Part shown: one piece after another, positions 6,798-28,215 of the stretch
How the letters are laid out: the number at the start of each line of letters is the position of its first letter
Numbering within the stretch: position 1 is the first letter of the stretch
NCBI GenBank assembly: GCA_030038895.1
Contig: JASHQX010000030.1
Coordinates: 1 to 44,676, forward strand
Direction of reading: 5' to 3'
Source of the DNA: Thermoplasmata archaeon
Lineage (GTDB): Archaea > Thermoplasmatota > Thermoplasmata > Lutacidiplasmatales > UBA184
DNA length: 44,676 nucleotides
Translations under genes and position numbers: made by a program
The notes under the pieces: generated by a model
What the model was told of the DNA's origin: nothing
Seen by the model: the letters and a program-made list of their open reading frames with translations, nothing else
Databases searched by the model: none

Positions 6798-7697
6798 TCA
6801 CCGGACTAGGAAGGGAGCAAGCCGCTCTCGGATTCTCGAGAGCCGTTCCCGCACCCCCGCGGCTTCCCCTGGGGTGAGGGGATCATACGGCGCGCGATAG
6901 CCGACCTCCGCCCCGCGAAGTTCCGCGGCGAGGAACTTCATGTTTGAAGGGAACGGAGCCGCGCGTCCAACCTCCACCAGGGCGTTGACGATGGCCTGGC
7001 ATTCGGCCGCCCGCGGGCGGTCCCCTGCCCGGGCCGCCGCAACGAGCTCGATGCAGAGCCGAGGCACGATGTTCGCGATGCCCATCACCGCCCCCGCAGC
7101 GCCGCGGGCGATCGCGTCGCTCGCAAACGCGTCATCGCCGGGAAAGACCGGGAAGCCTCCAGGGGCCCCGGTCAGAAATGATTCGACGCTCGCGAGCGAT
7201 CCCGAGGTGTCCTTCAACCCTGCGAGGATGTGGTCGCGGGCGAGGGCGTGGACGAACGCGGAAGGAAGGGCGTAGCCGACCAGCGACGGGATGTTGTACG
7301 CCAGCAGGGGAATCTCGACCGAACCGTGCAGGGCGTGGTAGTACCGTTCGACCGAGGGCAGCGCCGGATGGAGGTAGAACGGCGGGACCGCCACCACCGC
7401 AGCCGCCCCCGCCCCTTCCGCCGACTCGGCGTACGCGACCGCCTGATGGGTCGAAGGGGCGCCGCACCCCACCCACACATCGGTCGAACCCACGACGCTC
7501 CCGACCACGACGTCGATCAGACGCTCCCGTTCCTCGTCGGTCACCGAGGGGAACTCCCCCAGCGACCCGAGGACAAAGACGTGGTCGACCTTGGCATCCG
7601 CCAACCCACGGGCGAACTTCGCGTTACGGCCGAGGTCGAGCGAACCGTCGTCGGAGAAGAGGGTGGGGACCGGTACCACGAGCCCATCAAGCGTCAT
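6798..7697 (-). CDS. kdgA: DHDPS/NAL-family aldolase, probably 2-keto-3-deoxygluconate aldolase
   Basis: MTLDGLVVPVPTLF...VFVLGSLGEFPS...Schiff-base lysine context GLKDTSG. It lies 3 nt upstream of gdh. The track ORF (to 8369) carries a spurious 224-aa extension antisense to rnhB. Confidence 0.6.
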   Translation of the reverse strand: MTLDGLVVPVPTLFSDDGSLDLGRNAKFARGLADAKVDHVFVLGSLGEFPSVTDEERERLIDVVVGSVVGSTDVWVGCGAPSTHQAVAYAESAEGAGAAAVVAVPPFYLHPALPSVERYYHALHGSVEIPLLAYNIPSLVGYALPSAFVHALARDHILAGLKDTSGSLASVESFLTGAPGGFPVFPGDDAFASDAIARGAAGAVMGIANIVPRLCIELVAAARAGDRPRAAECQAIVNALVEVGRAAPFPSNMKFLAAELRGAEVGYRAPYDPLTPGEAAGVRERLSRIRERLAPFLVR

Positions 7698-7760
7698 GAA
7701 AGGGGCCAGCGGCGGCGGGGTTAAAGAAGGGAGCCGCGGTATGTACGAAAGAGGAGCCCG

Positions 7761-13935: not shown

Positions 13936-14871
13936 TCATAGCGGGCCTCGAACCCCCACTCCGAGGAGCGGGGCGTTCGCCGCGATCGCCAAGATTACGA
14001 ACAGTAGGTACGGCCCGGAGTAGATGAATCCCCGCCGCGCCACGCGAGAGCTCACCTCAGTCCAGAGCGGGAGCGTGAGCGCGACGAACCCCGCCCCGAG
14101 CCCGACCAGGGCGAGGAGGACCGGCCAGGCGACCGCCCCGGTCCATCCGAGGAGGAGCGCCGCGGGAACGAGGAGCGCCGCCGAGACGACAACGACCCTT
14201 CCCGAGAGCGCGACATCGTCCATCCGCGGGAGCATCGGGAGGCCCGCGCGCTCGTAGTCGTTCCGGAGCAGGAGCGCAAGGCTCCAGAAGTGCGGGGGAG
14301 TCCAGAGGAAGACAAGGAGCGCGAACGCGAGGACCCCGGGGGTCCAGCTGCCGACGGCCGCGGCCCCTCCGGCGAGCGCGGGGGCGCTCCCGGCAAACCC
14401 GCCGATCACGATGTTCCAGCTCGAGCGGCGCTTGAGCCAGAGGGTGTAGACGACGACGTAGGTGAGCCCGCCGAGGAGGATCGAGAACCCGGTCAGCGGG
14501 TTCAGGAAGACCGTGCCGGCGCCAATCCCGAGGACGAGAAGGGCGAGCCCGAGCGCGAGGACGAGGTCCCCCCGGACGATCCGTTCATCGGGCAGCGGGC
14601 GGTGGCGGGTCCGCTTCATCCGGCGGTCGACGTCCCGGTCGAGGTAGTGGTTGAGCATCGCCGAGCCCGCCGAGGCGGCCGCTCCCGCGCCGACGAGGAT
14701 CGCGAGGCGCACTAGGTCGATCGTGCGGGGATCCGCGAGGAGGAACCCACCCACCGCGACGAGGCAGATGAGGGCGGTGATCCCCGGCTTCGCGAGCTCG
14801 AAGAGGTCCCGGGCGAGGCGTCGGGATGGGAGTTCGGACGCTGCGGCGATGGGTCCGTTGGGAGCGGTCAT
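13936..14871 (-). CDS. ctaB: Protoheme IX farnesyltransferase (heme O synthase)
   Basis: UbiA-family polytopic protein with NHYLDRDVDRRMKRTRHRPLP. Confidence 0.9.
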   Translation of the reverse strand: MTAPNGPIAAASELPSRRLARDLFELAKPGITALICLVAVGGFLLADPRTIDLVRLAILVGAGAAASAGSAMLNHYLDRDVDRRMKRTRHRPLPDERIVRGDLVLALGLALLVLGIGAGTVFLNPLTGFSILLGGLTYVVVYTLWLKRRSSWNIVIGGFAGSAPALAGGAAAVGSWTPGVLAFALLVFLWTPPHFWSLALLLRNDYERAGLPMLPRMDDVALSGRVVVVSAALLVPAALLLGWTGAVAWPVLLALVGLGAGFVALTLPLWTEVSSRVARRGFIYSGPYLLFVILAIAANAPLLGVGVRGPL

Positions 14872-14901
14872 GGGAGCGCCCCGGTCGGGGGAACGGTCCA
14901 G

Positions 14902-15489
14902 CTAGCCATTTCGGGGCTGGCCGAACGGCACCTCCGATTTCGAGGGGGGAACTTCGGGGCGGGGCAGGGCCATGCTCGGTGGGGAGTCGGAGACCTCGCT
15001 GGCCGCGCGGCGGACCCAGGCGACCACACGCGGAGGCAACTCGCGTAGGTTCGCGAGGACCGTAAGGAGGAGAAGGAGTCCGAAGAGCGCGGTCGCGATC
15101 CCGAGGTGGAGGAGGATGAACGGGAGCTCGAGCCCACTCTCGACGACGAGGCCCCCGAGGAGCGCCTCGGTCACGACCAGCGCGAGCGAGCCGAACGAGA
15201 GGCGGAGGAGGACCTTGCGGCCCCGCTCGTAGACGAGCGCGAGCAGCGTTACTACGAGGACCGAGACCGAGAGGAAGAACGCCGCGACGCGGTGGCTCCA
15301 TTCGGCGACCACCCCACCTTGGAACGCGGGAAGGAGGTTCCCGTTCCCGTAGCACGACGGCCAGTCCGGGCACGCGAGTCCGTTCCCGCTCGCCATCACA
15401 TTGCCGCCGAGAAGGATCGTCGTGTAGCAGAGGAGGCACGCCATCGCGGTGGCGACCCGGAAGAGCTCGTGGCCCCGCGTCCGCGCCAT
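14902..15489 (-). CDS. ctaA: Heme A synthase, short 4-helix archaeal type
   Basis: GGNVMASGNGLACPDWPSCYG motif, four hydrophobic helices, His in helices (EWSHRV, ILLHLG). It starts 4 nt after the coxI stop. Confidence 0.8.
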   Translation of the reverse strand: MARTRGHELFRVATAMACLLCYTTILLGGNVMASGNGLACPDWPSCYGNGNLLPAFQGGVVAEWSHRVAAFFLSVSVLVVTLLALVYERGRKVLLRLSFGSLALVVTEALLGGLVVESGLELPFILLHLGIATALFGLLLLLTVLANLRELPPRVVAWVRRAASEVSDSPPSMALPRPEVPPSKSEVPFGQPRNG

Positions 15490-15493
15490 CGGA

Positions 15494-17170
15494 CTACGGC
15501 GCCTCCGTCGGGGTCGCGGTCGGCAACGGGACCGGGACGCGCGCGGGTGCCGGAGCGGCGACCGGCCCGGTCATCTTGACCGAGAGCTCCTCGCCCCACG
15601 GGTCCGGGACCGTGACCGGCTCCCCCCCGTAGTAACTATAGACCATGTTGAACAGGAAGACGAGCTGCCCGATCCCGAGGACGTACGCCCCGAGGGTCGA
15701 GAGGAAGTTGAGCGCCTGGAAGTTCCCGTTCCAGAGATACGTGTAGACCCGGCGGGGCATCCCCTCCGCGCCGAGGATGAACATCGGGAACAGGAGGACG
15801 TTGGTCCCGACGTACGTCATCAAGAAGTGGATCTGGGCGAGCCGCTGGTTGTACCAGCGGCGCGTGATGATCGGGAAATAGAAGTAGATCCCGGCGAAGA
15901 GCGCCATGAGGGTCCCGCCGAGCAGGATGTAGTGGAAGTGCGCCACGACGAAGTACGTGCCGTGGTAGAGGTAGTCGATCGGGATCGACGCGAGCATGAG
16001 GCCGGAGAGGCCGCCGATGACGAAGCCGGTGATGAACGCGACGCAGAACCACATCGGGATCGCCATCCAGACGCGGCCCCCCCACAGGGTCGCGACCCAG
16101 TTGAACGTCTTGACCGCCGACGGGACGGCGATCGCCATCGTCGCGAGCATGAAGACGAACCGGATGTTCGTCGAGATTCCCGTGACGAACATGTGGTGCT
16201 CCCAGACCGCGAAGCTGAGCACCGCGAAGACGCCGAGCGCGATCGCCATCGCGCCGTAGCCGAAGATGTCCTTGCGCGCGAGCTTCGGGAGGATCGTCGA
16301 GACGAGACCGAAGGCCGGCAGCACCATGATGTAGACCTCGGGGTGCGCGAAGAACCAGAAGATGTTCTGGTAGAGCAGCGCGCCGCCGAGCGGAGTGCCG
16401 TTGACCGCGGCGAGGATGTGCGTCCCGAACACGCGGTCGCTCAAGACGAACGTGAGCGCGATCGAGAGGGACGGGAGCGCGAAGATGAGGAGGACCGAGT
16501 TGATCAGGATCGACCAGACGAAGAGCGGCATGTTCCAGTAGTGCACGCCCGGGGCCCGGTGCTTGGTGATCGTGACGAGGAAGTTGATCGCCCCGAGCAT
16601 CGAGGAGACCGTGAGGATGTGTAGGCCGAGGACCCACAGGTCGATCCCGTCCCCCGGGATCTGAACGGAGAGCGGGACGTAGCCGGTCCAGCCGGCGTTA
16701 GCGTTCGAGAGGATCAGGATGACCCCGGCCGGCGGGAGCATCCAGAACGCGATCGCGTTGATCCGCGGGAGCGCCATCTCCCGCGAGCCGATCATCGACG
16801 GGACGAGGAAGTTGCCGAAGCCGGCGAGGACCGGCATGATGAACATGAAGATCATCAGGACCCCGTGCATCGTGAACAGGGTCGAGTAGACGTCCGGGGT
16901 GATCCCAAGGGTCGTCTGGGGGTCGAGGCCGAGGCCCTGCACGAACCCGAGATCCGTCCGGATGAGGGTCGCGTAGATCCCGCCGATGAAGAAGAAGACG
17001 ATCCCGGTGACGATGTACATGATCCCGATCCGCTTGTGATCGGTTGTGAACATCCACGTCTTCATCGTGCGGACGAGCCACGTCCCCTGGTAGGTGAACA
17101 GGTAGACGAGGAACGAGGCGAGCGCGACGATGAGGCTCACTTCGACCACGGGGACCGTGACGTTGGTCAT
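15494..17170 (-). CDS. coxA: Heme-copper oxidase subunit I
   Basis: [14 protein letters not shown]..., [40 protein letters not shown] lies 7 nt before the ATG. Confidence 0.95.
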
Positions 17171-17183
17171 CGCATCCTCCCGG

Positions 17184-17564
17184 TCATCCCGCGATAAGAC
17201 CCCCTAGTATGTACGCGATCGCGGCCGCGGCGATCACGACGATGAGGATCCGGAGGAACCGCGCCTCGGCCTCCTCCGTGATAGGCCCGGGCGGCGTCGG
17301 CTTGAACTTCCGTCCGAGCGGCCACGACCGGTAGGTTCGGTCCACGATGTGTACGATCAGCGCGGCCATCAGAAACATGAGCGCGACCGCGATCCCGAAC
17401 GACTCCTGGGCACCGGGGCTCGTGATCGGCCCGAGCCGGACAGCGTAGACGATCAGCACCGCGATCCCGAGGAGCATCAGGACAGTGACGGCGGTGTAGA
17501 GGTCCAGCACCCGCTCGCGCGCCGCGCGCACGTCCGAGGGAAGGGCGGGGGCGGGGCTACTCAA
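17184..17564 (-). CDS. Membrane protein (about 126 aa, 3 predicted helices), unassigned respiratory-operon component
   Basis: Three hydrophobic segments. TTG start overlapping the upstream stop by 8 nt (GTG starts further in are possible). Confidence 0.55.
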
Positions 17565-17820
17565 AGAGCTCTACCCTCCGCTGGTTCGCGCCCCGGTATC
17601 GGTCGACCCGATAGAGGATCCCGGCGATGAACAGGAATGCGAGGAAGGCCATGGTCCCCCCCGCGGTGGCCACCAGGAGGTACCAGAGGTTCCCGGCGGC
17701 CGCGCCGAGGATGCCGTAGACGAACGTCGCACCGCCCGCGGTCCCGACGATGAGGAAGCCGAGAAGGACTCCCCAGAGGGAGGTGGTGTTCCACTTCGGC
17801 GATGCGGGGGGGCTATTCAC
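17557..17820 (-). CDS. Small membrane protein (about 87 aa, 2 helices), unassigned
   Basis: GTG 17820 overlaps the cytochrome b stop (GTGAATAG). The sequence is WGVLLGFLIVGTAGGATFVYGILGAAAGNLWYLLVATAGGTMAFLAFLFIAGILY. The track start at 17883 would overlap cytochrome b by 70 nt. Confidence 0.5.
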   Translation of the reverse strand: MNSPPASPKWNTTSLWGVLLGFLIVGTAGGATFVYGILGAAAGNLWYLLVATAGGTMAFLAFLFIAGILYRVDRYRGANQRRVELFE

Positions 17821-19162
17821 TGGACTTGACCTCCGACGCCCCGACCGGGGCGGCTGGCGCCGCGGTTGGGAGTGCGTACACACCGAGGAACGGCGTCCCG
17901 CGCGCGGCGAGCCGTTTGAGGTAGTTGCGGCGGTACCGCCAGTAGAAGAGCGCGACCGCGATCCCGGTCACAAGGAAGAGGGGCCCGAGCGTCTCGGCGA
18001 CGAGCATCGGGGCGATCTGCACCCCCGGCGTCTCGCCGCCCCAGACGGTCATCAGAACGAAGAACTCGAGGAAGGACGTAGCGAGCCAGATGAAGAACGG
18101 CCGGTCCCGCGGGTGGGTCCGCTTCGAGCGATCGAGGTACGGCAGGAACAGGAAGTACAGGATCAGGACCGTCGTCACGCCGATCGCGAGGACGGGGGTC
18201 ACGTACTGGAAGTCAACGAACTTGAACAGCCAGAGGAAGTACCAGTCTGGCTCGGTCACGACGCCCGCGGCCGCGAGGTTCCCGACGTACGTGGGAAGGC
18301 TCCACGGCCAGAGCGCCGCAATCCCGAGTAGGAGCCCGACGTAGAGAAGCCCCCACTTCGTAATGTACCAGAAAATGTGGGGCATGAACGGGACGTGGGA
18401 CTTGTCCTCCTTCTCGTTGTACCGCCGACGCTGGGTCGGGTCCGAGGTCGCCGGCGGCGCGATCCCGTGCGACTCGAACAACGCAATGTGAGCGTAGAGG
18501 AGGGCCGCGAGACCGAGCGGGATCAGGAGGACGTGCGCATCGAACATCCGGGAGAGGAGCCCCTGCGCCGTTCCATCCGCGAGGATGAACGGCCCGAGGA
18601 GCGGGCCGATGGTGGGGAGGCGCAGCGCGAGGACAATCCCGACGTTCGTCGCGTTGTAGGAGAGCTGGGTGTACGGAAGGAGGTAGCCGGTGAACCCCAT
18701 CCCGAGGGTCAGGATCATGAGGAGCGTCCCGACCATCCAGGAGAACTCGCGTGGCGCCTTGTACACCCCGAGGTAGTACCCACGGAAGAAGTGGACGAAC
18801 ATGAGAAAGATCATCGCGTAGGCGCCGTAGAGGTGGCTTGTGAGGAGGAGCGAACCCATCGGAACGGAGTGGAGGATGTAGTAGGTCGAGCACCACGCCG
18901 CCGGCGCTGCCGAGTACGCCCCGACGGGCTGTCCGCACGCGGTGAGGGTCGGGGCGGTGCTTGGTTGGTAATAAAGGAGGAGAAGCGCGCCCGAGACGAC
19001 CTGGTAGAGGAACGCGTTCACGACGAACGCGCCGGTCCAGTACGAGGGCTTGAACGTGAACTCCGGCTGCGGGCGGAGCGCCCACTTCTTCATCGAGGTC
19101 CGGTCCTCGACAAAACCCCAGATGCGGTTCAGCGTCCGATTGTACCAGTTCGAGAACCCCAT
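17813..19162 (-). CDS. Cytochrome b (fused b6/subunit IV-like) of a bc-type complex
   Basis: 449 aa and polytopic, with an N-terminus typical of archaeal SoxC/SoxN-like cytochrome b (YWTGAFVVNAFLYQVVSGALLLLYY...). It starts 10 nt after the Rieske stop, with a GGAG in between. Confidence 0.8.
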   Translation of the reverse strand: MGFSNWYNRTLNRIWGFVEDRTSMKKWALRPQPEFTFKPSYWTGAFVVNAFLYQVVSGALLLLYYQPSTAPTLTACGQPVGAYSAAPAAWCSTYYILHSVPMGSLLLTSHLYGAYAMIFLMFVHFFRGYYLGVYKAPREFSWMVGTLLMILTLGMGFTGYLLPYTQLSYNATNVGIVLALRLPTIGPLLGPFILADGTAQGLLSRMFDAHVLLIPLGLAALLYAHIALFESHGIAPPATSDPTQRRRYNEKEDKSHVPFMPHIFWYITKWGLLYVGLLLGIAALWPWSLPTYVGNLAAAGVVTEPDWYFLWLFKFVDFQYVTPVLAIGVTTVLILYFLFLPYLDRSKRTHPRDRPFFIWLATSFLEFFVLMTVWGGETPGVQIAPMLVAETLGPLFLVTGIAVALFYWRYRRNYLKRLAARGTPFLGVYALPTAAPAAPVGASEVKSSE

Positions 19163-19172
19163 CGCCGGACTC

Positions 19173-20000
19173 CTACGTCGGGAAGTTGCACAGGATGACC
19201 GGCGTCTCTTTCACGAGCTGCGAGGTCGCGCCGACCCCGTAGTCGCCCTGAAGGGTGTTGAGGTGCCCATTGACCGGCGGGCTCCCGGGACGCATCCCAT
19301 TCGCGAAGATGTTCCCGGCCGCGTCCGTTTCGAGGAGCACCTGCGGGAGCGGGAGCACGGCCGGCCCGGTCAGGTTCGCGGCCGAGTTCGTGACATCGTA
19401 GGTCGACCCGTGGCACGAGCAGTGGATGTAGAAGGTGTGGCCGCCCGGCGTTTCGGGGCACGTACCGGGCGGATAGAACGCGATCGCGGGTGCGGGGCAC
19501 CCCAGGTGCTGGCAGATCGCGCTGTAGGCGACGATCGACTGGTGCGTCCCGATCCCGTACGGGACGTTCTCGGCGCCGTTCGAGCCGTTCGGCGTCCCGC
19601 TCGCCGGGTAGAGATTGAGTAGGAAGTTCGGCTCGTTCTCGAGCGGGTAGTAAAACAGGTAGAGCTCGCTCGTCTCGACGTTGTACTCGCTCTCGACCTT
19701 CGCGACCGTGAGGGGACTACCGTCGGTGTCGATCAACTGGACCTTGGGATAGCTCGAGATCCCGATCGTGGGGGGCTGGACGAACTGGAGCGTCCCCCCG
19801 ATCAATCCGCCCGCCCCGGCGCCGACGAGGCCGGCGACCGCGAGCAGCTTCAAGACGTTGCGCTTCGTTTCGTCGACCTCCTCGCCGCCGTTCGAGGGCA
19901 GGGAGGCGACCCGCCGAATCCGGCCGACAGGAAAATCGAACCGGGACGAGCGGAACGACGCCATCGGGCAGGTCGCGGCGCAGGCCGGGAAGTTCGGCAT
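19173..20000 (-). CDS. Rieske 2Fe-2S protein
   Basis: Box I CQHLGC and box II CSCHGS. KRNVLKLLAVAGLVGAG is a signal-anchor with a Tat-like KR motif. ATG 20000 overlaps the upstream stop (TGATG). Confidence 0.9.
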   Translation of the reverse strand: MPNFPACAATCPMASFRSSRFDFPVGRIRRVASLPSNGGEEVDETKRNVLKLLAVAGLVGAGAGGLIGGTLQFVQPPTIGISSYPKVQLIDTDGSPLTVAKVESEYNVETSELYLFYYPLENEPNFLLNLYPASGTPNGSNGAENVPYGIGTHQSIVAYSAICQHLGCPAPAIAFYPPGTCPETPGGHTFYIHCSCHGSTYDVTNSAANLTGPAVLPLPQVLLETDAAGNIFANGMRPGSPPVNGHLNTLQGDYGVGATSQLVKETPVILCNFPT

Positions 20001-20185
20001 CACAGCGTCCTCCCCGAGGTCTCGGGCCGGGCGTCGTCGACGCCTTCGGGCGAAGGGACCCGGGCGTCGCCGGGAAGCTCGGCGTTTTCGCTCCCGCGAT
20101 AGACCGCCCAGGTGATCCCGATCCCCATCAGCACGACGAGGATCTCCGTGAGTGTGACGATCTGGTCCGGTGAAAGGCCGCTCAT
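20000..20185 (-). CDS. Small (61 aa) single-pass membrane protein, unassigned
   Basis: MSGLSPDQIVTLTEILVVLMGIGITWAVYRG... ATGA overlap with the upstream gene. The track ORF (to 20488) is an Arg/Pro-rich extension. Confidence 0.5.
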   Translation of the reverse strand: MSGLSPDQIVTLTEILVVLMGIGITWAVYRGSENAELPGDARVPSPEGVDDARPETSGRTL

Positions 20186-20589
20186 CGATACCCTCCGACC
20201 TCGTTCGGCACGACCGGCATCGTCATCGTCCAGGTAGGGACAGGAACGCCCCCGGTCCAGGGCGAGACTGGGGACGGGACCGGCGGGGGGATGGGTGGGG
20301 CGGGAGGGACCGCGGGTGGGACCCGAACGGCCGCCGGGATCCCCCGGCTCTGCGTCGGGATCGGCTCGAGGCCGAGAAGCGCTCCGCGCACGGTGAGCGG
20401 CGTGCCCGGCGGGGGAAGCGGGAGGTCCGCGGCCTTCGCGAACTCCCCGAGGAGCTCCTGCTTCAGGCGCCCCGCGCGCCCGTACCAACGACCGAGCGTC
20501 CGGAGAAGCTGGCCACTGTCCTTGCCGAGCAGGAGGAAGAGCGCCGCGGCCCCGATGATGAGCCAGTCGACGTCGGAGAAGAGCGCCAT
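20182..20589 (-). CDS. TatA/TatB-like Sec-independent translocase component with a Pro-rich tail
   Basis: N-terminal helix DWLIIGAAALFLLLG, then an amphipathic segment LLRTLGRWYGRAGRLKQELLGEF, then a Pro-rich C-terminus. It starts 4 nt after tatC. Confidence 0.6.
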   Translation of the reverse strand: MALFSDVDWLIIGAAALFLLLGKDSGQLLRTLGRWYGRAGRLKQELLGEFAKAADLPLPPPGTPLTVRGALLGLEPIPTQSRGIPAAVRVPPAVPPAPPIPPPVPSPVSPWTGGVPVPTWTMTMPVVPNEVGGYR

Positions 20590-20593
20590 CGGT

Positions 20594-21427
20594 TCAACCG
20601 ACCCCTGCCGCGGCCACCGGGCCGCGACGTTTGGCGCCCAACCGTTCCCAGCGCGCCGCGAAGTACGCCCCGCCGAAATAGAGCCCGATCATCGGCGCCG
20701 CGATGAGGAGCATGGTGATCCCCGAGTTGTCCGGCGTGACGATCATCCCGAAGACGAGCGCGCCAAGAACCGCGGCGCGCCAGTGCTGACGCCAGGTCGA
20801 GGACCGGACGACGCCCATCCGGGTGAGCGCATAGATGAACACCGGCAACTCGAACACAACGCCAAATGCGAGGGAGTAGAGCAGGGCGAAGGTGACGAAG
20901 TCCTGCACTCCGAGGTAGGGCTGGAGGCCCATCGCGGCGACGTACCGGAAGAGGAGGAGGAAGGTGAACGGCGTGAGGATGAGAAGCCCCCCCACGGTCC
21001 CGATCGCGAAGAGGACCGTCGCGGGAATCCCGATCGAGCGCAGGAGCGCCCGCTCGTTGCGTCGGAGCGCGGGAACGAGGAACGCGCCGACCTCGTGGAC
21101 GATCCAGGGCATCCCCACGATCGCGGTGAGGAGCAGCCCGATCTCCATCTGAACCATGACCGAGTCGCCCACCCCCACGTTGAGGAGCTTCACGCCCGGC
21201 GGGAGCATCCACGACACCATCGCGTGGAAGACCTGCGCAGTGACGTTGTAGAACGGGCTGGGCCAGGGGTACACGAACGGAACCGAGTGCCCGAAGACCG
21301 AGACCGTGATCGGGCGTAGCTCGAAGAGAAGCAGGAAACCGAAAATCGAACCGAGGACGAGCGCAATGCGGACTAAGCGGCGTCGGACCTCCCCGAGTAC
21401 CTCGAGGATTCGGCTCAAGTCGCTCAT
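20594..21427 (-). CDS. tatC: Sec-independent protein translocase TatC
   Basis: Six-helix protein with ...LAFGVVFELPVFIYALTRMG... and ...IVTPDNSG... motifs. Confidence 0.85.
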   Translation of the reverse strand: MSDLSRILEVLGEVRRRLVRIALVLGSIFGFLLLFELRPITVSVFGHSVPFVYPWPSPFYNVTAQVFHAMVSWMLPPGVKLLNVGVGDSVMVQMEIGLLLTAIVGMPWIVHEVGAFLVPALRRNERALLRSIGIPATVLFAIGTVGGLLILTPFTFLLLFRYVAAMGLQPYLGVQDFVTFALLYSLAFGVVFELPVFIYALTRMGVVRSSTWRQHWRAAVLGALVFGMIVTPDNSGITMLLIAAPMIGLYFGGAYFAARWERLGAKRRGPVAAAGVG

Positions 21428-21532
21428 CCGCGCCTCCGAAAGCCCTCTCGAGACCCGAGCCGGGCGGGGGCCCGGGCGTACCGAGAATCGATCGAGGCTC
21501 GTCCCTCGGGCATGCCGGGTCGGGGGCCCGGC

Positions 21533-21742
21533 CTAGTGCCCCGGCGGCGTCGGCGTGCTGGCGCCCGCCGCGGCGCGTGCCTGCTCGGCCTTCAGTTCTT
21601 GTTCGCTCTCGAGGCGTCCCTTCTTGAACTCCCCGACCGAGCGGCCCAGGTTGCGGGCCAGCTGCGGGATCTTGCTGGATCCATAGAAGAGGATCCCTGC
21701 CACCACGGCGATGATCAACCAGTCGTCGATGGAGTCGAACAC
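21533..21742 (-). CDS. tatA: Sec-independent protein translocase TatA
   Basis: GTG 21742 is preceded by GGAGGG at 5 nt. (M)FDSIDDWLIIAVVAGILFYGSSKIPQLARNLGRSVGEFKKGRLE... is the classic TatA architecture. The track shows it only as the tail of a 236-aa artefact ORF. Confidence 0.8.
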   Translation of the reverse strand: MFDSIDDWLIIAVVAGILFYGSSKIPQLARNLGRSVGEFKKGRLESEQELKAEQARAAAGASTPTPPGH

Positions 21743-21777
21743 CGTATCCCTCCGCGGTTTCAGCGAGGTGCGGGGGG

Positions 21778-21793
21778 ATATGGAGTTCGTACG
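21778..21793 (-). promoter_or_regulatory. CGTACG core + N6 + ATAT box upstream of the tat-respiratory operon
   Basis: The gene-sense strand reads CGTACG AACTCC ATAT. The ATAT begins 39 nt before GTG 21742. Confidence 0.4.
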
Positions 21794-21846
21794 GGCGGAA
21801 CCGGACGGATACCAACCGTCCGGACCCGGGGTAGATAAAACGCCGG

Positions 21847-22890
21847 TCAGGCGGCCTCGATCAGGACGGTTTCGCTCCCGGCGGCGACCGCCCGGTCGAT
21901 CGCGAGCTCGGCGAGGAGCGAGAGGCACCCCACGCTGCGGGGCAGCCACTGCAGGGTCGAGCGGGACGTCACGCTGCTGGATGTGCGGCGGCCCTTGACG
22001 ACGGTCGTGGCCAGCGTTTCCGAAAAGGAGGTGTTCTGTTGGTACACTTCGCAGGCGTGATCGAGCGAGGGGTGCATCAGCGCTTCCATCACCGCCTTCA
22101 GGTGGCCCTTCATCTCGGGGACGTGGGTCGTGAGCGAATCCCGGACCTCGGCCGGAAGCTTCGGGGCCTCCTCGTAGAGCACCCCGAGCGCCTCGCCGAA
22201 CAGCTGGGCCAGCTCCTCGAGCGCATGGACCGCGACCCGCCACTCGAGAAGCTGGCGCGGGTCAGGGCTGCCGATCCGTCGCGCGAGTGCCCAGTCCCGG
22301 CTCGCGAGGAAGAGCTGGCGGACCAGGAGCGCGAGGACCTTGTTCGCCTCCTCCTCGAGCGTCGCGAGTCGACGGTTGCGCGAGGTGCGCTGGACGATCG
22401 ACTCCATCTCCTCGAGGAACGCGATCAAGATCATCTTCATCCGCTGGACGAGCTGGGGGAGCCCGTACTTCGACGGATCGATGAAGTTCTGAAGGACCAT
22501 CCGGTTCGACTCCTGGGCGACCACGGATACTCCGAGGAGACCGCGAGCCGCTCCGAGGACCTCCTCGACCCGGTCCGGGGCGAGGGGCATGTCCGTGCGT
22601 ACTTCGATCGCGTCGTGCCCGACTCGGTACGCGCCGACGATGAGGCGCTCAAGGACCCCCGGAGTGTCGAACGCGCGGGCTTGTACGAGAAACGGAGCTC
22701 CCGAGGAAGCGGCTCCAGGAACGGGCGCGGGCTTGAGGTAGAGGGCGCCGTCGTCGTTCTGGTCAAAGACGATGAGGTCACCGGGCCGAAGGTTCATCGC
22801 CTCGGCCCACGGTTTCGGCAACGTGACCGCGATCGATGAATGGCCCGCTTTCAGCACCCGTCGCTCCCGATTCGGCGTCCCCCAAGCCAT
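21847..22890 (-). CDS. AbrB/SpoVT-domain + PhoU-domain regulator (archaeal PhoU-like)
   Basis: The N-terminal RVLKAGHSSIAVTLPKPWAEAMNLRPGDLIVF is a SpoVT/AbrB swapped-hairpin motif. The remainder is all-helical with PhoU-like repeats. ATG 22890. Confidence 0.7.
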   Translation of the reverse strand: MAWGTPNRERRVLKAGHSSIAVTLPKPWAEAMNLRPGDLIVFDQNDDGALYLKPAPVPGAASSGAPFLVQARAFDTPGVLERLIVGAYRVGHDAIEVRTDMPLAPDRVEEVLGAARGLLGVSVVAQESNRMVLQNFIDPSKYGLPQLVQRMKMILIAFLEEMESIVQRTSRNRRLATLEEEANKVLALLVRQLFLASRDWALARRIGSPDPRQLLEWRVAVHALEELAQLFGEALGVLYEEAPKLPAEVRDSLTTHVPEMKGHLKAVMEALMHPSLDHACEVYQQNTSFSETLATTVVKGRRTSSSVTSRSTLQWLPRSVGCLSLLAELAIDRAVAAGSETVLIEAA

Positions 22891-22903
22891 CCGAGTTCCC
22901 CCC

Positions 22904-22927
22904 AACCTACTACAAGGTTCGTAGGTT
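22904..22927. promoter_or_regulatory. Inverted repeat AACCTAC-N10-GTAGGTT in the AT-rich promoter region of the AbrB-PhoU gene
   Basis: Perfect 7-nt arms. It lies 14-37 nt upstream of ATG 22890, next to GTTAAAC (a TATA-like box on the minus strand). It contains TTCGTAGG, one mismatch from the TTCGTACG element. Confidence 0.4.
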
Positions 22928-22985
22928 TAACGAGGGGCCCTTTTTGAATGTTTGGTTGAGTTTTTTCCCCGGACCTTTGGGATTG

Positions 22986-23720
22986 TCACCCCGTCGGCGT
23001 GAGCGGAGGCGAGGGAGGATGCGGCGATTCTCCGGGGGTCGGAGGCTCCGCGTACCCGAGGCGTTCGGGTGGCATCTCGAACTCCGAGCCGCGGCGCCGG
23101 CCGACGACGAATCCGAGGACGATCGCGATCACCACCATGCTCACGATCGTCCCGATGATAATGAAGACCGCCGCCCCCGGACCGGTCGCACCGGAGGAGA
23201 CCGTGAGGTTCGCGGGGAGGACCTCGCCGAAGGCGATGAAACCGTACATCCCCGAGGCGAAGTGCCCGGGCTCCTCGCAGACGAACTCGTACCAGCCGAC
23301 CCCCGGCGACGTGAACGTCTTGGTGACCACGTCCCCGGAGCCGGTCACGTTGATGCTGACGAGGGCGCCGTGCGCCGCGAACTCCGCGGGGATGTCGGCG
23401 GACGGCCAGGGGAGGACGGTTCCTTCCAGGTTCAGGATCGAGAACGTGTGGGGAAGCGTGTCGGCGTCCGTGACGGTGACGGTGACCGTGGTGTTGGTCG
23501 CGACCTGCTGGAAGGTGTTGGGGTCGAACATGAACGGCGCGGTCGTCGTGACGTCCACCGTCGTGGTAGTGTCGACATGGGCCGAGGCGGCGCGAGCCTC
23601 CTCGGTCGCGACCCAGCCGCCCCCCACGATGAGCAGCGCTACGCTCACGAGGAGCGTGACCAACGTGCGGGCCCTCCCTCCTCGAATCGACATTCCCATT
23701 CTCGCCGACGCGAATCGCAC
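22986..23720 (-). CDS. Sulfocyanin/halocyanin-like type-1 blue copper protein with a C-terminal membrane anchor
   Basis: Cu ligands are HTF...CEEPGHFASGM. There is an N-terminal signal/anchor and a C-terminal helix AAVFIIIGTIVSMVVIAIVLGFVV. Start is GTG 23720 or ATG 23699. Confidence 0.8.
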   Translation of the reverse strand: MRFASARMGMSIRGGRARTLVTLLVSVALLIVGGGWVATEEARAASAHVDTTTTVDVTTTAPFMFDPNTFQQVATNTTVTVTVTDADTLPHTFSILNLEGTVLPWPSADIPAEFAAHGALVSINVTGSGDVVTKTFTSPGVGWYEFVCEEPGHFASGMYGFIAFGEVLPANLTVSSGATGPGAAVFIIIGTIVSMVVIAIVLGFVVGRRRGSEFEMPPERLGYAEPPTPGESPHPPSPPLTPTG

Positions 23721-23736
23721 GCGGGACGGGTGTGTG

Positions 23737-23760
23737 ATTCAAAGCCCCTCCGTACGTACG
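23737..23760 (-). promoter_or_regulatory. CGTACGTACG + N6 + CTTTGAAT upstream of the sulfocyanin-like gene
   Basis: The gene-sense strand reads CGTACGTACG GAGGGG CTTTGAAT. The box ends 17 nt before GTG 23720. Confidence 0.3.
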
Positions 23761-23806
23761 CCATCCACCCGGCGGGACGGAACCCAGCCCCGCGGGTGGG
23801 CATCAG

Positions 23807-23828
23807 TTCGTACGTGGGGAATATGTAG
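23807..23828 (+). promoter_or_regulatory. TTCGTACG + N6 + ATATGTAG upstream of coxII
   Basis: ttcgtacg tgggga atatgtag. The ATAT begins 30 nt before ATG 23851, giving leaderless geometry. Confidence 0.45.
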
Positions 23829-23850
23829 CCCGATAGGCCCGTCCGGCGCA

Positions 23851-24078
23851 ATGCGCCTTCGCCGGGGTCTCGAGCGTATCCGAGCCTCGCTTCGCCCGGC
23901 CGGTCTCGCCGTGGCCGGCGGGTTTCTATTCGCGTCCTCGAACCTCCAGGAGACGAACGATCTGGTCTGGACGATGGTCGCGATCGGGGTCGCGGGCTCG
24001 ATCGTGACGTTTTCCTTCCTCGTCTACTCGATCTGGCGATTCCGCGACCCCAAGGCGAAGGGACGGCGGCATGGTTAA
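23851..24078 (+). CDS. Oxidase subunit II, N-terminal fragment (TM1)
   Basis: MRLRRGLERIRASLRPAGLAVAGGFLF...LVWTMVAIGVAGSIVTFSFLVYSIWRFRDPKAKGRRHG*. It ends where the HxN..E..WT loop motif of CoxII begins. Confidence 0.6.
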   Translation: MRLRRGLERIRASLRPAGLAVAGGFLFASSNLQETNDLVWTMVAIGVAGSIVTFSFLVYSIWRFRDPKAKGRRHG

Positions 24079-24532
24079 CAAGTACGAGGTTGCCTGGACG
24101 CTCGCGGTCGTCGCGCTCATCGCCGGGGTCAGCGTGTACTCCACAATCCTGCTCTACCAGCTCGACCAGCTTCCGGGCGATCCGACCGAATACGTCGACG
24201 TCACCGGCCACCAGTGGTACTGGGAGTTCTGCTACCCGGTGAACAACACGTGCTTCAACTCGAGCTACGACGCATCGACGAACACCGTCAGCGGCGGGGC
24301 GTTATGGGCGTCCCCGGGCGCGGAGCTCCAGATCAACGTTACGGGCGCGGACGTGATCCACTCATTCAACATCCCACAGCTCGGCGTGCGGATCGACGCG
24401 ATCCCCGGCCGGATGAACCACTTTGCCTTCCAGGTCCCCACCGTCGCAGCGGGAACCAGCTACCTGATCCAGTGCACCGAATTCTGCGGCGAGTTTCACG
24501 GAACGATGCGCTCGTTCCTCATCGTGACCTGA
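24071..24532 (+). CDS. coxB: Oxidase subunit II, TM2 + CuA cupredoxin domain
   Basis: MVNKYEVAWTLAVVALIAG..., GHQWYWEF, VIHSFNIPQLG, and the CuA site CTEFCGEFHGTM. Its ATG overlaps the stop of the preceding fragment (ATGGTTAA). Confidence 0.85.
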   Translation: MVNKYEVAWTLAVVALIAGVSVYSTILLYQLDQLPGDPTEYVDVTGHQWYWEFCYPVNNTCFNSSYDASTNTVSGGALWASPGAELQINVTGADVIHSFNIPQLGVRIDAIPGRMNHFAFQVPTVAAGTSYLIQCTEFCGEFHGTMRSFLIVT

Positions 24533-24588
24533 GCGGTGCCGCGCGGGTCCTCTCTCCCCCGACGGGATCGGCGGTAATCCCGGTGGCC

Positions 24589-25620
24589 TCAGGAGTGGCC
24601 ACCGTGTCCACCGGCGCGCCCTCTACGGGGGAAGCGACCAGTGAACGATGCGATAACCGCGAGGAGGACCCCGATCACGAGAAGCCCGCCGGACCCGGCG
24701 AGTACCCAGGTCTCGACGACCGCGGTGCTAGGGGGCGCCGGCGGGGCCGGGACCGGCACGTTGACGTAGAGGAGCCCGTCCATGCCGCTAGCGAAGTGCC
24801 CGGGGACCTCGCAGATGTACTGGTAGACGCCCGGAGCGGCGAGCGTAAAGTTCGCCCAGACGGAGCTGCCGGCTCCCGCCGGCACCGTCGCGGAGACGAG
24901 AGGGGGGTGGGCGGTGAAGTACGAAGTGAAGTTGGTGGGAGAGAGCGTATAGTTCGACTGAGCGGCGAGTGTGAACGTGTGCCCGAAACTCCCCATGTTC
25001 GTCACTAGGACGTCGACCGACTCGGGGAAGTGGGGCGCGGTGACCGCGAGCTCGTTCGGAACGAACTGGAGGGAGTCGGTCGTGGTCTCGTTGAGCCGGA
25101 CCCCTGGACCCGAGAACGTGACGTTGAGGAACCCGAACATTCCGGCTTGGAACTGGAACGGTACGAGCGAGACGAACTCGAACGAGTCGCCGCCGACCGA
25201 CGCGTTGAGCGAGATGTTCGCGTACGCCTGCTGGCCCGGGGCGACCGAGACGTTCGCGAGCGAGCCGTTTTTGGCGAAGAACGACGAGAGCTCCGCCGGG
25301 GTCCAGGAGGTGTTGAGAATGACCCCCGGGACCTTCGAAACGGTGAACGTGTGGTTGTAGTGGCCGAGGTTATCGAGGTGGACGGTGAGGGTCGAGTTCG
25401 TGGCACCGACGAGCGAGCGGGGCACGAACCGCGGCGTGTCGGTCATGTTTACCGTGACGGTCGAATTGCGGCTCAGGGGGCGGGCGAGCCCGACCGATGG
25501 TGCGGAGGGCAGGTGCGTGATCGCCGCCGCGACGGGAAGGGCCAGCGTCGCAAGGAGCAGGCCCGCGGCCAGCCATGGAGCCGCGCGACGCCACGGTCCG
25601 GGATGTCGGGCCTGGCGCAA
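24589..25620 (-). CDS. Two-domain cupredoxin (degenerate N-domain, intact type-1 Cu C-domain), membrane anchored, sequon-rich
   Basis: Domain 2 has GHTF...YICEVPGHFASGMDG. Domain 1 has NHTF...FVSLVPFQFQAGMFG (Cys to Ser, His to Gln). A C-terminal helix is present. TTG start, preceded by AAGGGGGA. Confidence 0.75.
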   Translation of the reverse strand: MRQARHPGPWRRAAPWLAAGLLLATLALPVAAAITHLPSAPSVGLARPLSRNSTVTVNMTDTPRFVPRSLVGATNSTLTVHLDNLGHYNHTFTVSKVPGVILNTSWTPAELSSFFAKNGSLANVSVAPGQQAYANISLNASVGGDSFEFVSLVPFQFQAGMFGFLNVTFSGPGVRLNETTTDSLQFVPNELAVTAPHFPESVDVLVTNMGSFGHTFTLAAQSNYTLSPTNFTSYFTAHPPLVSATVPAGAGSSVWANFTLAAPGVYQYICEVPGHFASGMDGLLYVNVPVPAPPAPPSTAVVETWVLAGSGGLLVIGVLLAVIASFTGRFPRRGRAGGHGGHS

Positions 25621-25667
25621 GTCGATTCCCCCTTCTTTCGGACACCGACGCGACCTGAGGTGCGTTG

Positions 25668-25685
25668 ATATGCGCGATGTACGAA
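25668..25685 (-). promoter_or_regulatory. TTCGTACA + N6 + ATATCAAC upstream of the two-domain cupredoxin
   Basis: The gene-sense strand reads TTCGTACA TCGCGC ATATCAAC. The ATAT begins 51 nt before TTG 25620. Confidence 0.4.
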
Positions 25686-25716
25686 TCGCCCGCTCTCGCC
25701 GGCCCGCAGGGCAGCG

Positions 25717-26688
25717 TTAACGGTTCGCGAGGCTCCCCGGGTCCCCCGACGCGAGGGGGCGGGGCACCGGCTCGCCCGAGGGAGCCTCGCCTTCCACCGA
25801 GCGGGCGATCCAGGGCCGGAACCTTGGACCTTGGTAGAACCTCCAGTACAGGTAGGTGGACTCGACCCCCATCACAAGGGCCATGAGGCCGCCGAACGCC
25901 GACGCGGCGATCGGGGAAGCCTGGGTGGCCGCGACCGCGATCCCGCCCGCGGTCATCGCGAGGAACGCAGAGGTGAGGCCGACGAAGAACCGCGCCTCCT
26001 CCGGACCGGCCCGTCCGCGGGCGAGGCGACGCACGAGGACGGCGGACACGCCTCCCATCAGCGCCGCCATGAGGATCCCTCCGACAGTGGGGTAGGCGGG
26101 GACCCAGGGGGCGATGACCGCGGCGAGCGTCAGCGCGACGAATCCTCCCTGTTCGGCCCGGGAGATCGGCGCCCAGAGGAGCACGGCGGCCATCACCCCC
26201 GCCATCGACCACAGAAACCACACGGACGTGAGCCCGCCCGCAATGGTGTTCAAAACGGAGAGAGGCGTCGCCGCTCCGCCGTAGGTAAAGAGGACCCCCA
26301 TGAGAACTTCGACGCCGGTGGCATCGACCGCGAGGAGCGCGGGCCAGAGAACGTTCCCCCGCGCGACGCGGCGGTCGTGGAACAGGATGAGCGAGACGAA
26401 CCAGAACCCGGCCGGGGCCATCATCATGAAGTTGAACGCGAGGAGCACGAGCGTCCAGGTCGTCGTCCCGTTCGAGTTCAGGAAGACGTAGAGGAGCGAC
26501 ATCATCAGGACGCTTCCGCCGAAGATCACGCCGAGCCCGAGCGTCAGCTGGGTCAAGAGGGGGGGTCGGCCGTCGGCCGGGAGCACCTTCCCCAGGATGA
26601 AGATCGTGATCCCGACCATCCCGACGGCGATGATCACGTAGGCAAGCGGGTCCGGGGGCATCGCGAGGGGCGGCAGGGGAAGGTCCAT
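25717..26688 (-). CDS. Polytopic membrane protein (323 aa, about 8-9 helices), unknown function
   Basis: Continuous hydrophobic segments and a single His. I recognise no CoxIII or transporter motif. ATAAGAAA lies about 24-31 nt upstream of ATG 26688. Confidence 0.6.
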   Translation of the reverse strand: MDLPLPPLAMPPDPLAYVIIAVGMVGITIFILGKVLPADGRPPLLTQLTLGLGVIFGGSVLMMSLLYVFLNSNGTTTWTLVLLAFNFMMMAPAGFWFVSLILFHDRRVARGNVLWPALLAVDATGVEVLMGVLFTYGGAATPLSVLNTIAGGLTSVWFLWSMAGVMAAVLLWAPISRAEQGGFVALTLAAVIAPWVPAYPTVGGILMAALMGGVSAVLVRRLARGRAGPEEARFFVGLTSAFLAMTAGGIAVAATQASPIAASAFGGLMALVMGVESTYLYWRFYQGPRFRPWIARSVEGEAPSGEPVPRPLASGDPGSLANR

Positions 26689-26770
26689 CGCGACGGCTCG
26701 AGACGGACGGCTTTCTTATGGACCCGGTTACGACCGGATCCCCGGATCCTCGGAGGATCGGTCCGGCCGG

Positions 26771-27613
26771 CTACGGCTCCCCGGACGACTTGCCCGTAAC
26801 CCCCGCGTCGAACCGGCGGATGAGCTGCGTCGTCACCTCGACCAGCGGGTGATGGCTCGTACGGTCGATCTCGATGTCCGAGACCGTGGAGAGATGGTGC
26901 TCGCGTGCGAGGCGCTCGAAGCCGGTCTCGAGGTCGGCGAACTCGTGCGGTCGGTCGCACCTCAGGATGAACGCCTGGAGCTGCGTCAGGCCCATCTCGC
27001 GCGCCGCGAGCGCCCGGTGGTGCCCGTCGACGAGGATCCAGGCATCCCCCTTCTGGAGGACGAGGACCGGCTCGGCGAACCCCCGCTCGATCTCGTAGCG
27101 GCGACCCTCGAGCTCGTCCTCGAAGACCTTCCACTGGGTCGGGGTCAACCGGTCGATCGGGACGAGACCGCGGTGGAATGAGAACGGAAGCCCGTACCGC
27201 TCGCTCAATAGGTGCTTTAGCGTGTCCGCCTTCACCGGCGACGCGCGCTCGAAATGCGAGCGGACGACGTCGATGTTGGCGAGCATCCCGCAGAGGCGGC
27301 CGTCCGCGTCGACGATGGGGAGGTCGCGCAGGCCGAACCGGAACATCACCCGCGCCGCATCGTCGAGCGCGGTATCGGGGGCCGCGGTAATCGTCCCCGG
27401 TCGGATAATCTTCGTGAGGGGGGTCTCGCCCTCCGCTGCGTGGCGGAGGAGCTCCTTCGCGCTGACGAAGCCGACCAGCTTCCCCCGTGCGTCGGTCACG
27501 GGCAGTCCGTGGTGGCGGCTGCGCATCAGGCGGGCGGTCGCCTCGCCTACGGTCGCGGTGTCGCGGACGTGCTCGACCTCGAGCACCATGTAGTCGCGGA
27601 CTCGGACGCTCAT
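26771..27613 (-). CDS. CBS-pair + ParB/Srx-like domain fusion protein
   Basis: Two CBS motifs (HHGLPVTDARGKLVGFVSAKELL; LRDLPIVDADGRLCGMLANIDVV) are followed by ...IDRLTPTQ...PVLVLQKGDAWILVDGHHRALAAREMG (ParB/sulfiredoxin-type DGHHR). ATGA overlap with gmhA. Confidence 0.7.
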   Translation of the reverse strand: MSVRVRDYMVLEVEHVRDTATVGEATARLMRSRHHGLPVTDARGKLVGFVSAKELLRHAAEGETPLTKIIRPGTITAAPDTALDDAARVMFRFGLRDLPIVDADGRLCGMLANIDVVRSHFERASPVKADTLKHLLSERYGLPFSFHRGLVPIDRLTPTQWKVFEDELEGRRYEIERGFAEPVLVLQKGDAWILVDGHHRALAAREMGLTQLQAFILRCDRPHEFADLETGFERLAREHHLSTVSDIEIDRTSHHPLVEVTTQLIRRFDAGVTGKSSGEP

Positions 27614-28215
27614 CGGGGCGGGGCGGGCTGCTCGTCGCGCAGGTACGTGGTGAGCATGTGGCAAACGATCAGATGGAGGTCCTCGGTGTGCTGCATGCTC
27701 TGGGACGGCACGACCACGGGGATGTCAACGAGGTCCTTCAGTTTCCCACCGCCCATCCCCGTGAGGCCGATTGTCGAGAGTCCCATCTCGCGAGCCGTGC
27801 GGACCCCCTCGAGGACGTTCGGGGAGTTCCCGCTCCCCGAGATCGCGACCGCGACGTCCCCCTTCTCCGCGAGCGCGCGCAAGGGACCCGCGAAGACCTT
27901 CGAGTAATCGGTGTCGTTCGCCCAGGCGGTGAGCCCCGGGGTGTTGTCGTTGAGCGCGACGCACTTGAAGCGACCCCCTTTCCCGCGCGGCTCGGTCCCT
28001 CCCGCGACCTTCGCGATGTCGGTGACGAAGTGGGAGGCGGTCGACGCGCTGCCGCCATTGCCGAAGAAGAAGATCGTCCGGTCCTCCGACCGGGCCCGGA
28101 GGAGTATCGGAACGATCCGTTCCATCGCCGAAAGGAGGTAGGGGGCCTCGAGCGTTGCCTCGGCCTCGCGGACGTACCGCTCGACGAACGGCTTCAGGGT
28201 CGAAAGGTCGCTCAT
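27610..28215 (-). CDS. gmhA: SIS-domain phosphoheptose isomerase (GmhA family)
   Basis: IFFFGNGGSASTASHF..., VAVAISGSGNSPNV, LTGMGGGKL, VPSQSMQHTEDLHL. ATG 28215 overlaps the kinase stop (ATGA). Confidence 0.75.
   Translation of the reverse strand: MSDLSTLKPFVERYVREAEATLEAPYLLSAMERIVPILLRARSEDRTIFFFGNGGSASTASHFVTDIAKVAGGTEPRGKGGRFKCVALNDNTPGLTAWANDTDYSKVFAGPLRALAEKGDVAVAISGSGNSPNVLEGVRTAREMGLSTIGLTGMGGGKLKDLVDIPVVVPSQSMQHTEDLHLIVCHMLTTYLRDEQPAPPR

Follow-up and report, generated by a model that had tools for sequence, protein, structure and literature searches.

A conserved palindromic box upstream of respiratory-chain promoters in uncultured Thermoplasmata, a predicted site for a shared transcription factor

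Whether the genes of an archaeal aerobic respiratory chain, spread over several promoters, might be controlled together through one short DNA element is a question raised by contig JASHQX010000030.1 (assembly GCA_030038895.1, Lutacidiplasmatales), a 44.7-kb stretch of 67% G+C DNA from a soil archaeon of an uncultured Thermoplasmata lineage; the whole stretch is referred to here as the window. In a first-pass annotation, four promoters of a respiratory gene island, those of the tat (twin-arginine translocation) operon, coxII, a two-domain cupredoxin gene, and a sulfocyanin-like gene, were read as carrying a GTAC[G/A] core 6 nt upstream of an AT-rich box, and this was proposed as a transcription factor binding site common to respiratory and copper-protein genes. 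All four composites are present in the window: CGTACGAACTCCATAT before the tat operon (21793-21778, minus strand), TTCGTACGTGGGGAATATGTAG before coxII (23807-23828, plus strand), CGTACGTACGGAGGGGCTTTGAAT before the sulfocyanin-like gene (23760-23737, minus strand), and the 22-mer TTCGTACATCGCGCATATCAAC before the cupredoxin gene (25685-25664, minus strand; its end had been misplaced at 25668). Comparison with relatives shows strong purifying selection on a dyad held at a fixed, orientation-independent slot beside the position expected for the TFB recognition element (BRE) of several respiratory promoters. It is likely, judging from the sequences compared, that this box is a conserved site for a predicted dimeric transcription factor co-regulating the aerobic respiratory chain of this lineage.

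Within the window, GTACR-N6-ATAT occurs three times, always inside the respiratory island, against 0.03 expected; none of 100 dinucleotide shuffles, used to set the chance level, reached three. TTCGTACR on its own is mildly enriched (5 vs 1.64 expected). The pattern was picked after the sequence had been inspected, and the decisive test is therefore an independent one, conservation in relatives. A CoxII search with one genome per species recovered 76 loci from Thermoplasmata metagenome-assembled genomes (MAGs), mostly from soil and peat assemblies, and motifs were counted in 75 archaeal loci totaling 1.23 Mb, of which four promoter zones make up 3.9%. These zones contain 207 of the 267 TTCGTAC words. 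A motif-free comparison of 8-mer frequencies between the promoter zones and the remaining 1.2 Mb ranked GTACGAAC/GTTCGTAC first (152 vs 31 occurrences, 239-fold, in 72 of 75 loci). By phylogenetic footprinting, the strict site [GA]TWCGWAC is found in 64 of 68 tat zones, 73 of 74 zones common to sulfocyanin and coxII, and 54 of 56 cupredoxin zones, over a background of 0.1 per kb, and the composite of box and AT box stands at the same syntenic offsets in nearly every locus.

The bases around the site behave differently. Site listings show no information upstream of the box; box and AT box are both fixed, and the 6-7 bases separating them vary freely at the coxII and cupredoxin promoters. A fixed box and a fixed TATA-like box amid varying spacers and flanks make this pattern a footprint. 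Its enrichment in these promoters and its retention upstream of orthologues in some 70 species-level genomes support the shared cis-regulatory site first proposed. Three of the downstream genes encode cupredoxin-fold proteins, and with a pattern chosen by eye this might suggest chance, or functionless promoter DNA copied among paralogues. Such an origin is hardly credible: the window has 3 copies against 0.03 expected, the tat promoter, which also has the site, does not precede a cupredoxin gene, and persistence in ~70 species whose adjacent non-coding bases are saturated with changes refutes it. A restriction-modification explanation for GTAC or CGTACG was likewise rejected, as neither is depleted relative to the base-composition expectation (GTAC, 162 vs ~135; CGTACG, 26 vs ~15).

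The unit that is conserved differs from the one first described. Rather than GTAC[G/A]-N6 at all four promoters, it is an 8-bp quasi-palindrome, GTWCGWAC (dyad GT.CG.AC), followed by seven free positions (N7) and an 8-bp TATA-like box; the earlier pattern corresponds to the 3' half of this 8-mer + N7 unit. Three genes have the exact N7 spacing (coxII, sulfocyanin-like, and two-domain cupredoxin), and at tat the spacer is N3. Loci missed by the first regular expression proved informative: one clade's coxII promoter reads GTACGAAC-N7-ATA(T/A)G(T/A)A, and others read GTTCGTAC-N7-ATATGTAG. The reverse complement of the 8-mer thus occupies the identical slot, its orientation flipping in place, and GTTCGTAC, GTACGAAC, and GTACGTAC are all seen at 8-mer + N7 in the coxII promoters of different clades. 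Use of the same slot in either orientation is as predicted for a symmetric dimer site. The arrangement extends to a divergent lineage (L074 and L081) in which the AbrB-domain regulator encoded in the island, discussed below, is only 47-50% identical: the 8-mer and N7 are kept at three promoters, and N3 at tat.

What the box might do depends on where it lies relative to the basal promoter. At coxII, 62 of 65 loci have the in-frame start codon of the small CoxII open reading frame (ORF) 27-31 nt (mode 29) past the AT box's first base; for the window this distance is 30 nt, to the ATG at 23851. A membrane-protein gene of the island and an unrelated kdgA-like gene have the same AT-box-to-start distance. 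Such spacing is that from a TATA box to the start of a leaderless mRNA, the TATA-to-start distance being well established. The coxII AT box is accordingly read as a TATA box, and the coxII mRNA is probably leaderless, as is common in archaea (PMC7289017). Start codons of the cupredoxin, sulfocyanin, and tat genes are further downstream, with purine-rich stretches preceding those of cupredoxin and tat; these mRNAs therefore probably have leaders. TFB binds the BRE, which abuts the TATA box on its 5' side and is 6-7 nt long (PMC5512572). The N7 spacer is accordingly the BRE slot, and with a leaderless coxII the 8-mer would span about -45 to -38, immediately 5' of that slot. The first-pass placement of the element at or just beyond the BRE agrees with this geometry.

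The usual place for an archaeal activator is immediately 5' of the BRE; repressors sit inside the promoter or 3' of it (PMC5512572, PMC5937170). Position upstream of the BRE and exactly kept spacing thus favor an activator, and on this geometry the site is most likely an upstream activating sequence. A fixed distance to the TATA-like box and contact with the BRE slot would also be properties of an extended core-promoter element, one recognized by a TFB or TBP paralogue or some other alternative basal factor; promoter-specific TFB paralogues are known in haloarchaea and Sulfolobus (PMC2396416, PMC7289017). This seems improbable, because TFB contacts span the 6-7 nt 5' of the TATA box (PMC5512572) while the box is 8-15 nt 5' of it, a palindrome that flips in place is unlike the polar TFB-BRE contact, and no TFB paralogue is found among the cluster genes. 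An element acting as RNA was rejected as well: an Rfam scan of 21400-26900 returned no family, only a sub-threshold sul1 match within a gene, and the coxII box is 5' of the transcribed region.

Individual promoters differ in detail. The coxII box, GTTCGTAC, is at 23806-23813 on the plus strand; its N7 spacer (23814-23820) has low information across species, with both flanks conserved, and the TATA-like box ATATGTAG, supported by the start-codon distance, follows at 23821-23828. The same slot in relatives is filled by GTTCGTAC, GTACGAAC/ATACGAAC, or GTACGTAC. The sulfocyanin promoter has a perfectly palindromic box, GTACGTAC (23752-23759, minus strand), and a TATA-like box, CTTTGAAT (23737-23744, minus strand), at which GGCTTTGAAY is kept in all relatives listed; their promoters read GTACGTAC, GTTCGTAC, or ATACGTAC, then N7, then CTTTGAAY. 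At the cupredoxin promoter, ATTCGTAC (25679-25686, minus strand) is followed by a variable N7 and by ATATCAAC (25664-25671, minus strand), the latter found in 44 loci and 622-fold enriched in promoter zones. The membrane-protein gene supplies a fifth promoter, with a weaker variant of the box in the same N7 slot: GTCGTAAC at 26727-26734 (minus strand), N7, ATAAGAAA at 26712-26719, and an ATG at 26688 (+31). Its relatives have GGTCGGTAC, GGTCGGAAC, or GTTCGGAC, then N7, then ATAAGAAA or ATATCAAA, and in one of them (L060) the promoter is a perfect GTTCGTAC-N7-ATAAACGC.

The tat promoter is the exception. Its proximal box, GTACGAAC (21785-21792, minus strand), is complete, but lies only 3 nt (N3) from the ATATC of the AT box (ATATCCCC, 21774-21781, minus strand; CCATATCG is conserved). 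It is shifted by half a site, so that its alignment with the other promoters is limited to the GTAC half. The tatA GTG start codon, at 21742, is 39 nt 3' of the AT box and is preceded by GGAGGG. A degenerate distal site (21806-21813, minus strand) reads GGTATCC in the window and nnnCGTAC in relatives, where another GTAC or CTAC precedes the proximal tat GTAC by ~19-20 bp, often as part of a palindrome (CCGTACCCGTACGG, CCCTACCGGTAGGG). The AT box had been described as the only AT-rich stretch of its intergenic region; this does not hold here, where a T-run, CGTTTTATC (minus strand, 21831-21842), directly follows the stop codon of the regulator gene. Beside the T-run, and overlapping the distal tat site, is an 8-bp inverted repeat, CCGGACGG/CCGTCCGG (21801-21808 and 21816-21823). 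The whole (21801-21842) may serve as a terminator, as an additional operator, or as both.

Elsewhere in the window the box is absent from the corresponding slot of the other candidate promoters, whose TATA-like boxes include TTCTTTAA, TTAGATAA, GTATTTAA, and ACTATAAC. A recurrence of the word in the kdgA/rnhB intergenic region, pointed out in the first-pass annotation, is present as TTCGTACA at 7742-7749; it was rejected as a regulon member, being 14 nt rather than 7 from the kdgA TATA-like box and kept in none of 35 related metagenome loci. The kdgA-like gene's ATTAAG TATA-like box, ~31 nt before the ATG, is on the other hand kept in these 35 relatives (window 7697-7760; loci L084-L121), and the unconserved TTCGTACA is thus a chance copy. 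This kdgA-like promoter cleanly illustrates the leaderless type general to the lineage. Inside the adjoining dehydrogenase-like ORF (5682-6794), an inverted pair, CTTCGTAC and GTACGAAC (TTCGTAC/GTACGAA), with its units 31 bp apart at 6523-6561, was also judged to be chance, since about one exact 8-mer is expected per 40 kb (31 copies in 1.2 Mb).

If the box binds a dimeric factor, the obvious candidate is encoded between the boxes themselves. The regulator gene (22890-21847, minus strand) lies between tatA and the sulfocyanin gene in ~70 loci, flanked by two box-bearing promoters. Its product has an N-terminal AbrB/MazE swapped-hairpin domain (PF04014, E = 1.1e-10, above the family cut-off; TIGR01439, 31.1 bits vs a cut-off of 28.3). 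The C-terminal two-thirds have no significant Pfam match, and a sequence search against PDB gave a weak AbrB-fold match only; a PhoU fold was seen through structure prediction. The AlphaFold model has a mean predicted local distance difference test (pLDDT) score of 69, with ~80-94 across most of the C-terminal helical part, and its eight best PDB structure matches are all PhoU or PhoU-like (probability 1.0, E = 0.006-0.04, TM-score on target length 0.47-0.69). The name AbrB-PhoU given to the protein at first pass is thus borne out for the AbrB domain by Pfam and NCBIfam, and for the PhoU-like fold by matches to a predicted model.

The family to which it belongs is large (1711 representatives at E ≤ 0.001), with an orthologue group that falls off sharply below 50% identity. 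Paralogues at 25-33% identity have weak PF01895 (PhoU) matches; at ~30% identity none is found beside respiratory or phosphate genes, leaving the family without a functional lead. At the positions of the PhoU E/DxxxD motif, orthologues have EEEANK or EEEADK and paralogues EDEVD or ENEADR. The orthologue group also has the sequence MHPSLDHAC (residues 272-280), in which His273 and Cys280 are invariant and which is absent from paralogues at 25-33% identity. In a PhoU-like bundle, these two residues could possibly form a metal or redox sensing site, and are offered as a lead.

In front of the regulator gene is a different element. The sequence TTCGTAGG (22918-22925), described at first pass as a one-mismatch copy of the box within a palindrome, is indeed there, and does belong to a palindrome, CTACG-N5-CGTAG. 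This palindrome, however, is an element distinct from the box. It is strongly conserved as AACCTACGRACCTYGTAGTAGGTT at 22904-22927; as an operator-like site, AACCTACGAACCTTGTAGTAGGTT (minus strand), it is matched once in the window against none expected. CTACG-N5-nGTAR is found in 68 of 71 loci, 31-36 nt before the regulator ATG, 3' of the AT boxes, so that it covers the region where transcription is expected to start; in three loci (L042, L056, L061) another copy precedes the AT box. Compared with the respiratory box, the bottom-strand half-site of the palindrome, GTYCGTAG, agrees at 6-7 of 8 positions. In the divergent lineage introduced above the palindrome is missing, and two tandem GTTCGTAC boxes are found upstream of the regulator gene instead; in L081 they are 10 bp apart at 5842-5859, ~150 nt 5' of the gene.

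Cluster position, a related operator at its own gene, true boxes before that gene in a divergent lineage, and the small size of the dyad support this AbrB-PhoU-like protein as the factor for the box, a proposal for which the chances appear roughly even. A dyad of only 8 bp suits a single AbrB-fold dimer.

Several points weigh against an activator site bound by this protein. Its own palindrome is always CTAC/GTAG and never GTAC (in the 68 of 71 loci that have it), so that a different protein may bind there, or a different protein may bind the box. Synteny in the region reaches clearly unrelated genes (CBS, SIS, GHMP kinase, helicase) and is thus general, making the regulator's position, taken alone, weak evidence for a link to the box. 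Bacterial AbrB-family proteins are mostly repressors, and the full tat 8-mer, lying 3 nt from the AT box and over the BRE slot, fits repression better than activation. One argument for an activator, that the box compensates for a weak BRE, was dropped: the BRE slots of the box promoters are GC-rich, but so are those of unrelated window promoters and of the kdgA promoter, and the lineage has no known consensus BRE.

The absence of GTAC from the palindrome and the generality of the synteny speak for the box being a true factor site read by another protein, either a syntenic one with CBS domains and a ParB-like match or one encoded elsewhere, with the AbrB-PhoU-like protein regulating only itself through CTAC/GTAG. 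This is a serious contender, if somewhat short of an even chance. The CBS-domain protein (26771-27664) is equally syntenic, in 61 loci, and a CBS-only protein is known as an archaeal activator at an upstream activating sequence (PMC11705074). Set against it are the correspondence between half-site and box, the two true boxes that precede the regulator gene in L074 and L081, and the acceptance of both CTAC and GTAC at the distal tat site. The general suitability of an 8-bp dyad for one AbrB-fold dimer also speaks for the encoded regulator over another factor.

Another reading is a repressor operator, at which a factor on the 8-mer would block TFB and TBP and keep respiratory genes off until a signal arrives. 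AbrB-fold antitoxins, like the bacterial AbrB-type proteins, are typically repressors; the candidate's own promoter has its operator at a repressor-type position; and the tat 8-mer overlaps the BRE slot at N3 in 64 of 68 loci. Steric hindrance within the promoter is a repressor's mode of action, but at four of the five promoters the box stays clear of BRE and TATA, at a strict N7, an activator position in the characterized archaeal cases cited (PMC5512572, PMC5937170). Plain occlusion, moreover, needs no such exact spacing, and repression at the box is considered unlikely.

With the box taken as an activating site, a mechanism can be sketched. A symmetric dimer would sit on the 8-mer at about -45 to -38, contacting and stabilizing TFB/TBP, and a single signal would jointly induce complex III, complex IV, the blue-copper proteins, Tat export, and haem A/O synthesis. 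From its gene position and the resemblance of the motifs, the factor would be the AbrB-domain/PhoU-like protein of the cluster, which would probably repress its own gene through the related CTACG-N5-CGTAG palindrome over promoter and start region. Redox state, oxygen, copper, or haem can be named as the signal, but these are guesses. The fullest form of this proposal, in which an AbrB-PhoU-like dimer is master activator at five promoters, autoregulates through a lower-affinity CTAC/GTAG palindrome, and senses redox state or metal via His273/Cys280, is put forward tentatively, as a possibility less likely than not.

The genes downstream of these promoters form a coherent set. Behind the tat promoter is a minus-strand array (13936-21742) of tatA (21742-21533; Pfam TatA_B_E), tatC (21427-20594; TatC), Rieske, cytb, coxI, ctaA (COX15-CtaA), and ctaB (UbiA-type), on a single strand throughout with small intergenic gaps, and with its synteny kept in relatives. 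Beyond the regulator gene are the sulfocyanin-like gene (23720-22986, minus strand), the split coxII (23851-24078 and 24071-24532, plus strand), the two-domain cupredoxin gene (25620-24589, minus strand), and the gene for the membrane protein, which has no assigned function (26688-25717, minus strand). The gene adjoining the island (26771-27664) encodes the CBS-domain protein, which has two such domains and weakly matches a ParB-like nuclease; at 65-86% identity, it is better conserved than the neighboring membrane protein and cupredoxin. By Pfam and synteny, complex IV genes adjoin those for complex III, haem A/O synthesis, Tat, and cupredoxins, as in a Lutacidiplasmatales-type respiratory cluster, and by tblastn the whole gene order is kept in ~70 loci. 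Two of the loci (L006 and L057) are MAGs AcS1-36 and AcS11-62, Lutacidiplasmatales genomes from a study that reported the same cluster composition, without regulation, and listed the regulator under proteins of unknown function (PMC9287336).

CoxII itself is encoded as a 75-aa transmembrane ORF, with a weak match to the CoxB N-terminus, and a 153-aa cupredoxin ORF (COX2, PF00116). The two overlap by ATGGTTAA, which suggests translational coupling, and the split is kept in related loci. The CoxII search also recovered a 1-kb contig from a MAG labeled Acidimicrobiales bacterium (L053; JADMIJ010000338.1) with a Thermoplasmata coxII promoter box and gene (75% identity), probably a binning contaminant. 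The sole non-archaeal CoxII relatives recovered (L077-L080, ~40% identity) are from MAGs of Xanthobacteraceae and other Alphaproteobacteria, and these loci lack both the box and the gene order of the archaea.

No description of this element, and no aerobic-respiration regulator for Thermoplasmatota, was found in the literature searched; a search with the 8-mer words returned primer sequences only. In bacteria there are functional analogues in FNR, ArcA, Rex, and ResD, each a single factor with sites before several respiratory operons, although these belong to unrelated protein families and differ in promoter architecture and in their sites. To our knowledge, nothing comparable has been characterized for Thermoplasmatota. 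GTAC-core elements are also known from Chlamydomonas, where the SBP-domain protein CRR1 acts through copper-response elements before copper-related respiratory and photosynthetic genes. This is only a lead: Pfam and NCBIfam scans of the cluster proteins found no SBP domain, and the likeness is most likely coincidence.

In kind, the box appears to belong with archaeal upstream regulatory boxes such as the TFB-RF1 motif, the ara-box, and the EarA sites. The motif of TFB-RF1 (PF1088) in Thermococcales is the closest in layout, being a short palindrome at a conserved distance upstream of BRE/TATA, conserved across the order, with its regulator encoded beside a target (PMC5937170). It differs in being a 13-nt sequence, TCTGAANTTCAGA, bound by a regulator without an AbrB fold whose targets are an ABC transporter and its own operon; its binding and activation were shown in vitro, while the present box is known from sequence and has no demonstrably weak BRE beside it. 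The Sulfolobus ara-box, as summarized in a later account, is likewise a short consensus directly upstream of BRE/TATA, common to co-induced promoters, whose factor was unidentified when it was described; it belongs to a crenarchaeal sugar regulon, has another sequence, and its dependence on a weak BRE is there shown experimentally (PMC5512572). EarA sites are four repeats at a single promoter, that of the Methanococcus fla (archaellum) operon, and are read by another factor family. New here would be the sequence, the aerobic-respiration regulon, the lineage, and the candidate factor family.

The candidate's architecture is that of the archaeal SpoVT/AbrB-PhoU regulators (e.g., TK2245 of Thermococcus kodakarensis), with an N-terminal AbrB domain and a C-terminal PhoU-like bundle. 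It differs from these in having no significant PhoU sequence match and in its own invariant His273/Cys280. The AbrB-PhoU architecture has been listed among archaeal transcription factors, with no motif or regulon given (PMC7325993, PMC6316755).

Very few archaeal activator sites have been defined, and the result here is an exact cis-element, an 8-bp dyad with N7 at five promoters, together with a named candidate factor from a large uncharacterized family. Its hosts are uncultured, but the prediction is open to test with recombinant protein and synthetic DNA, and in soil and peat metatranscriptomes. The comparison also offers an initial view of how promoters are laid out in this GC-rich order, with leaderless genes whose TATA-like box starts ~29-31 nt before the start codon. 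Should the AbrB-PhoU-like protein prove to be a master activator of these promoters, the widespread archaeal AbrB-PhoU family would gain its first defined regulon and DNA motif, and Thermoplasmatota their first described respiratory regulator.

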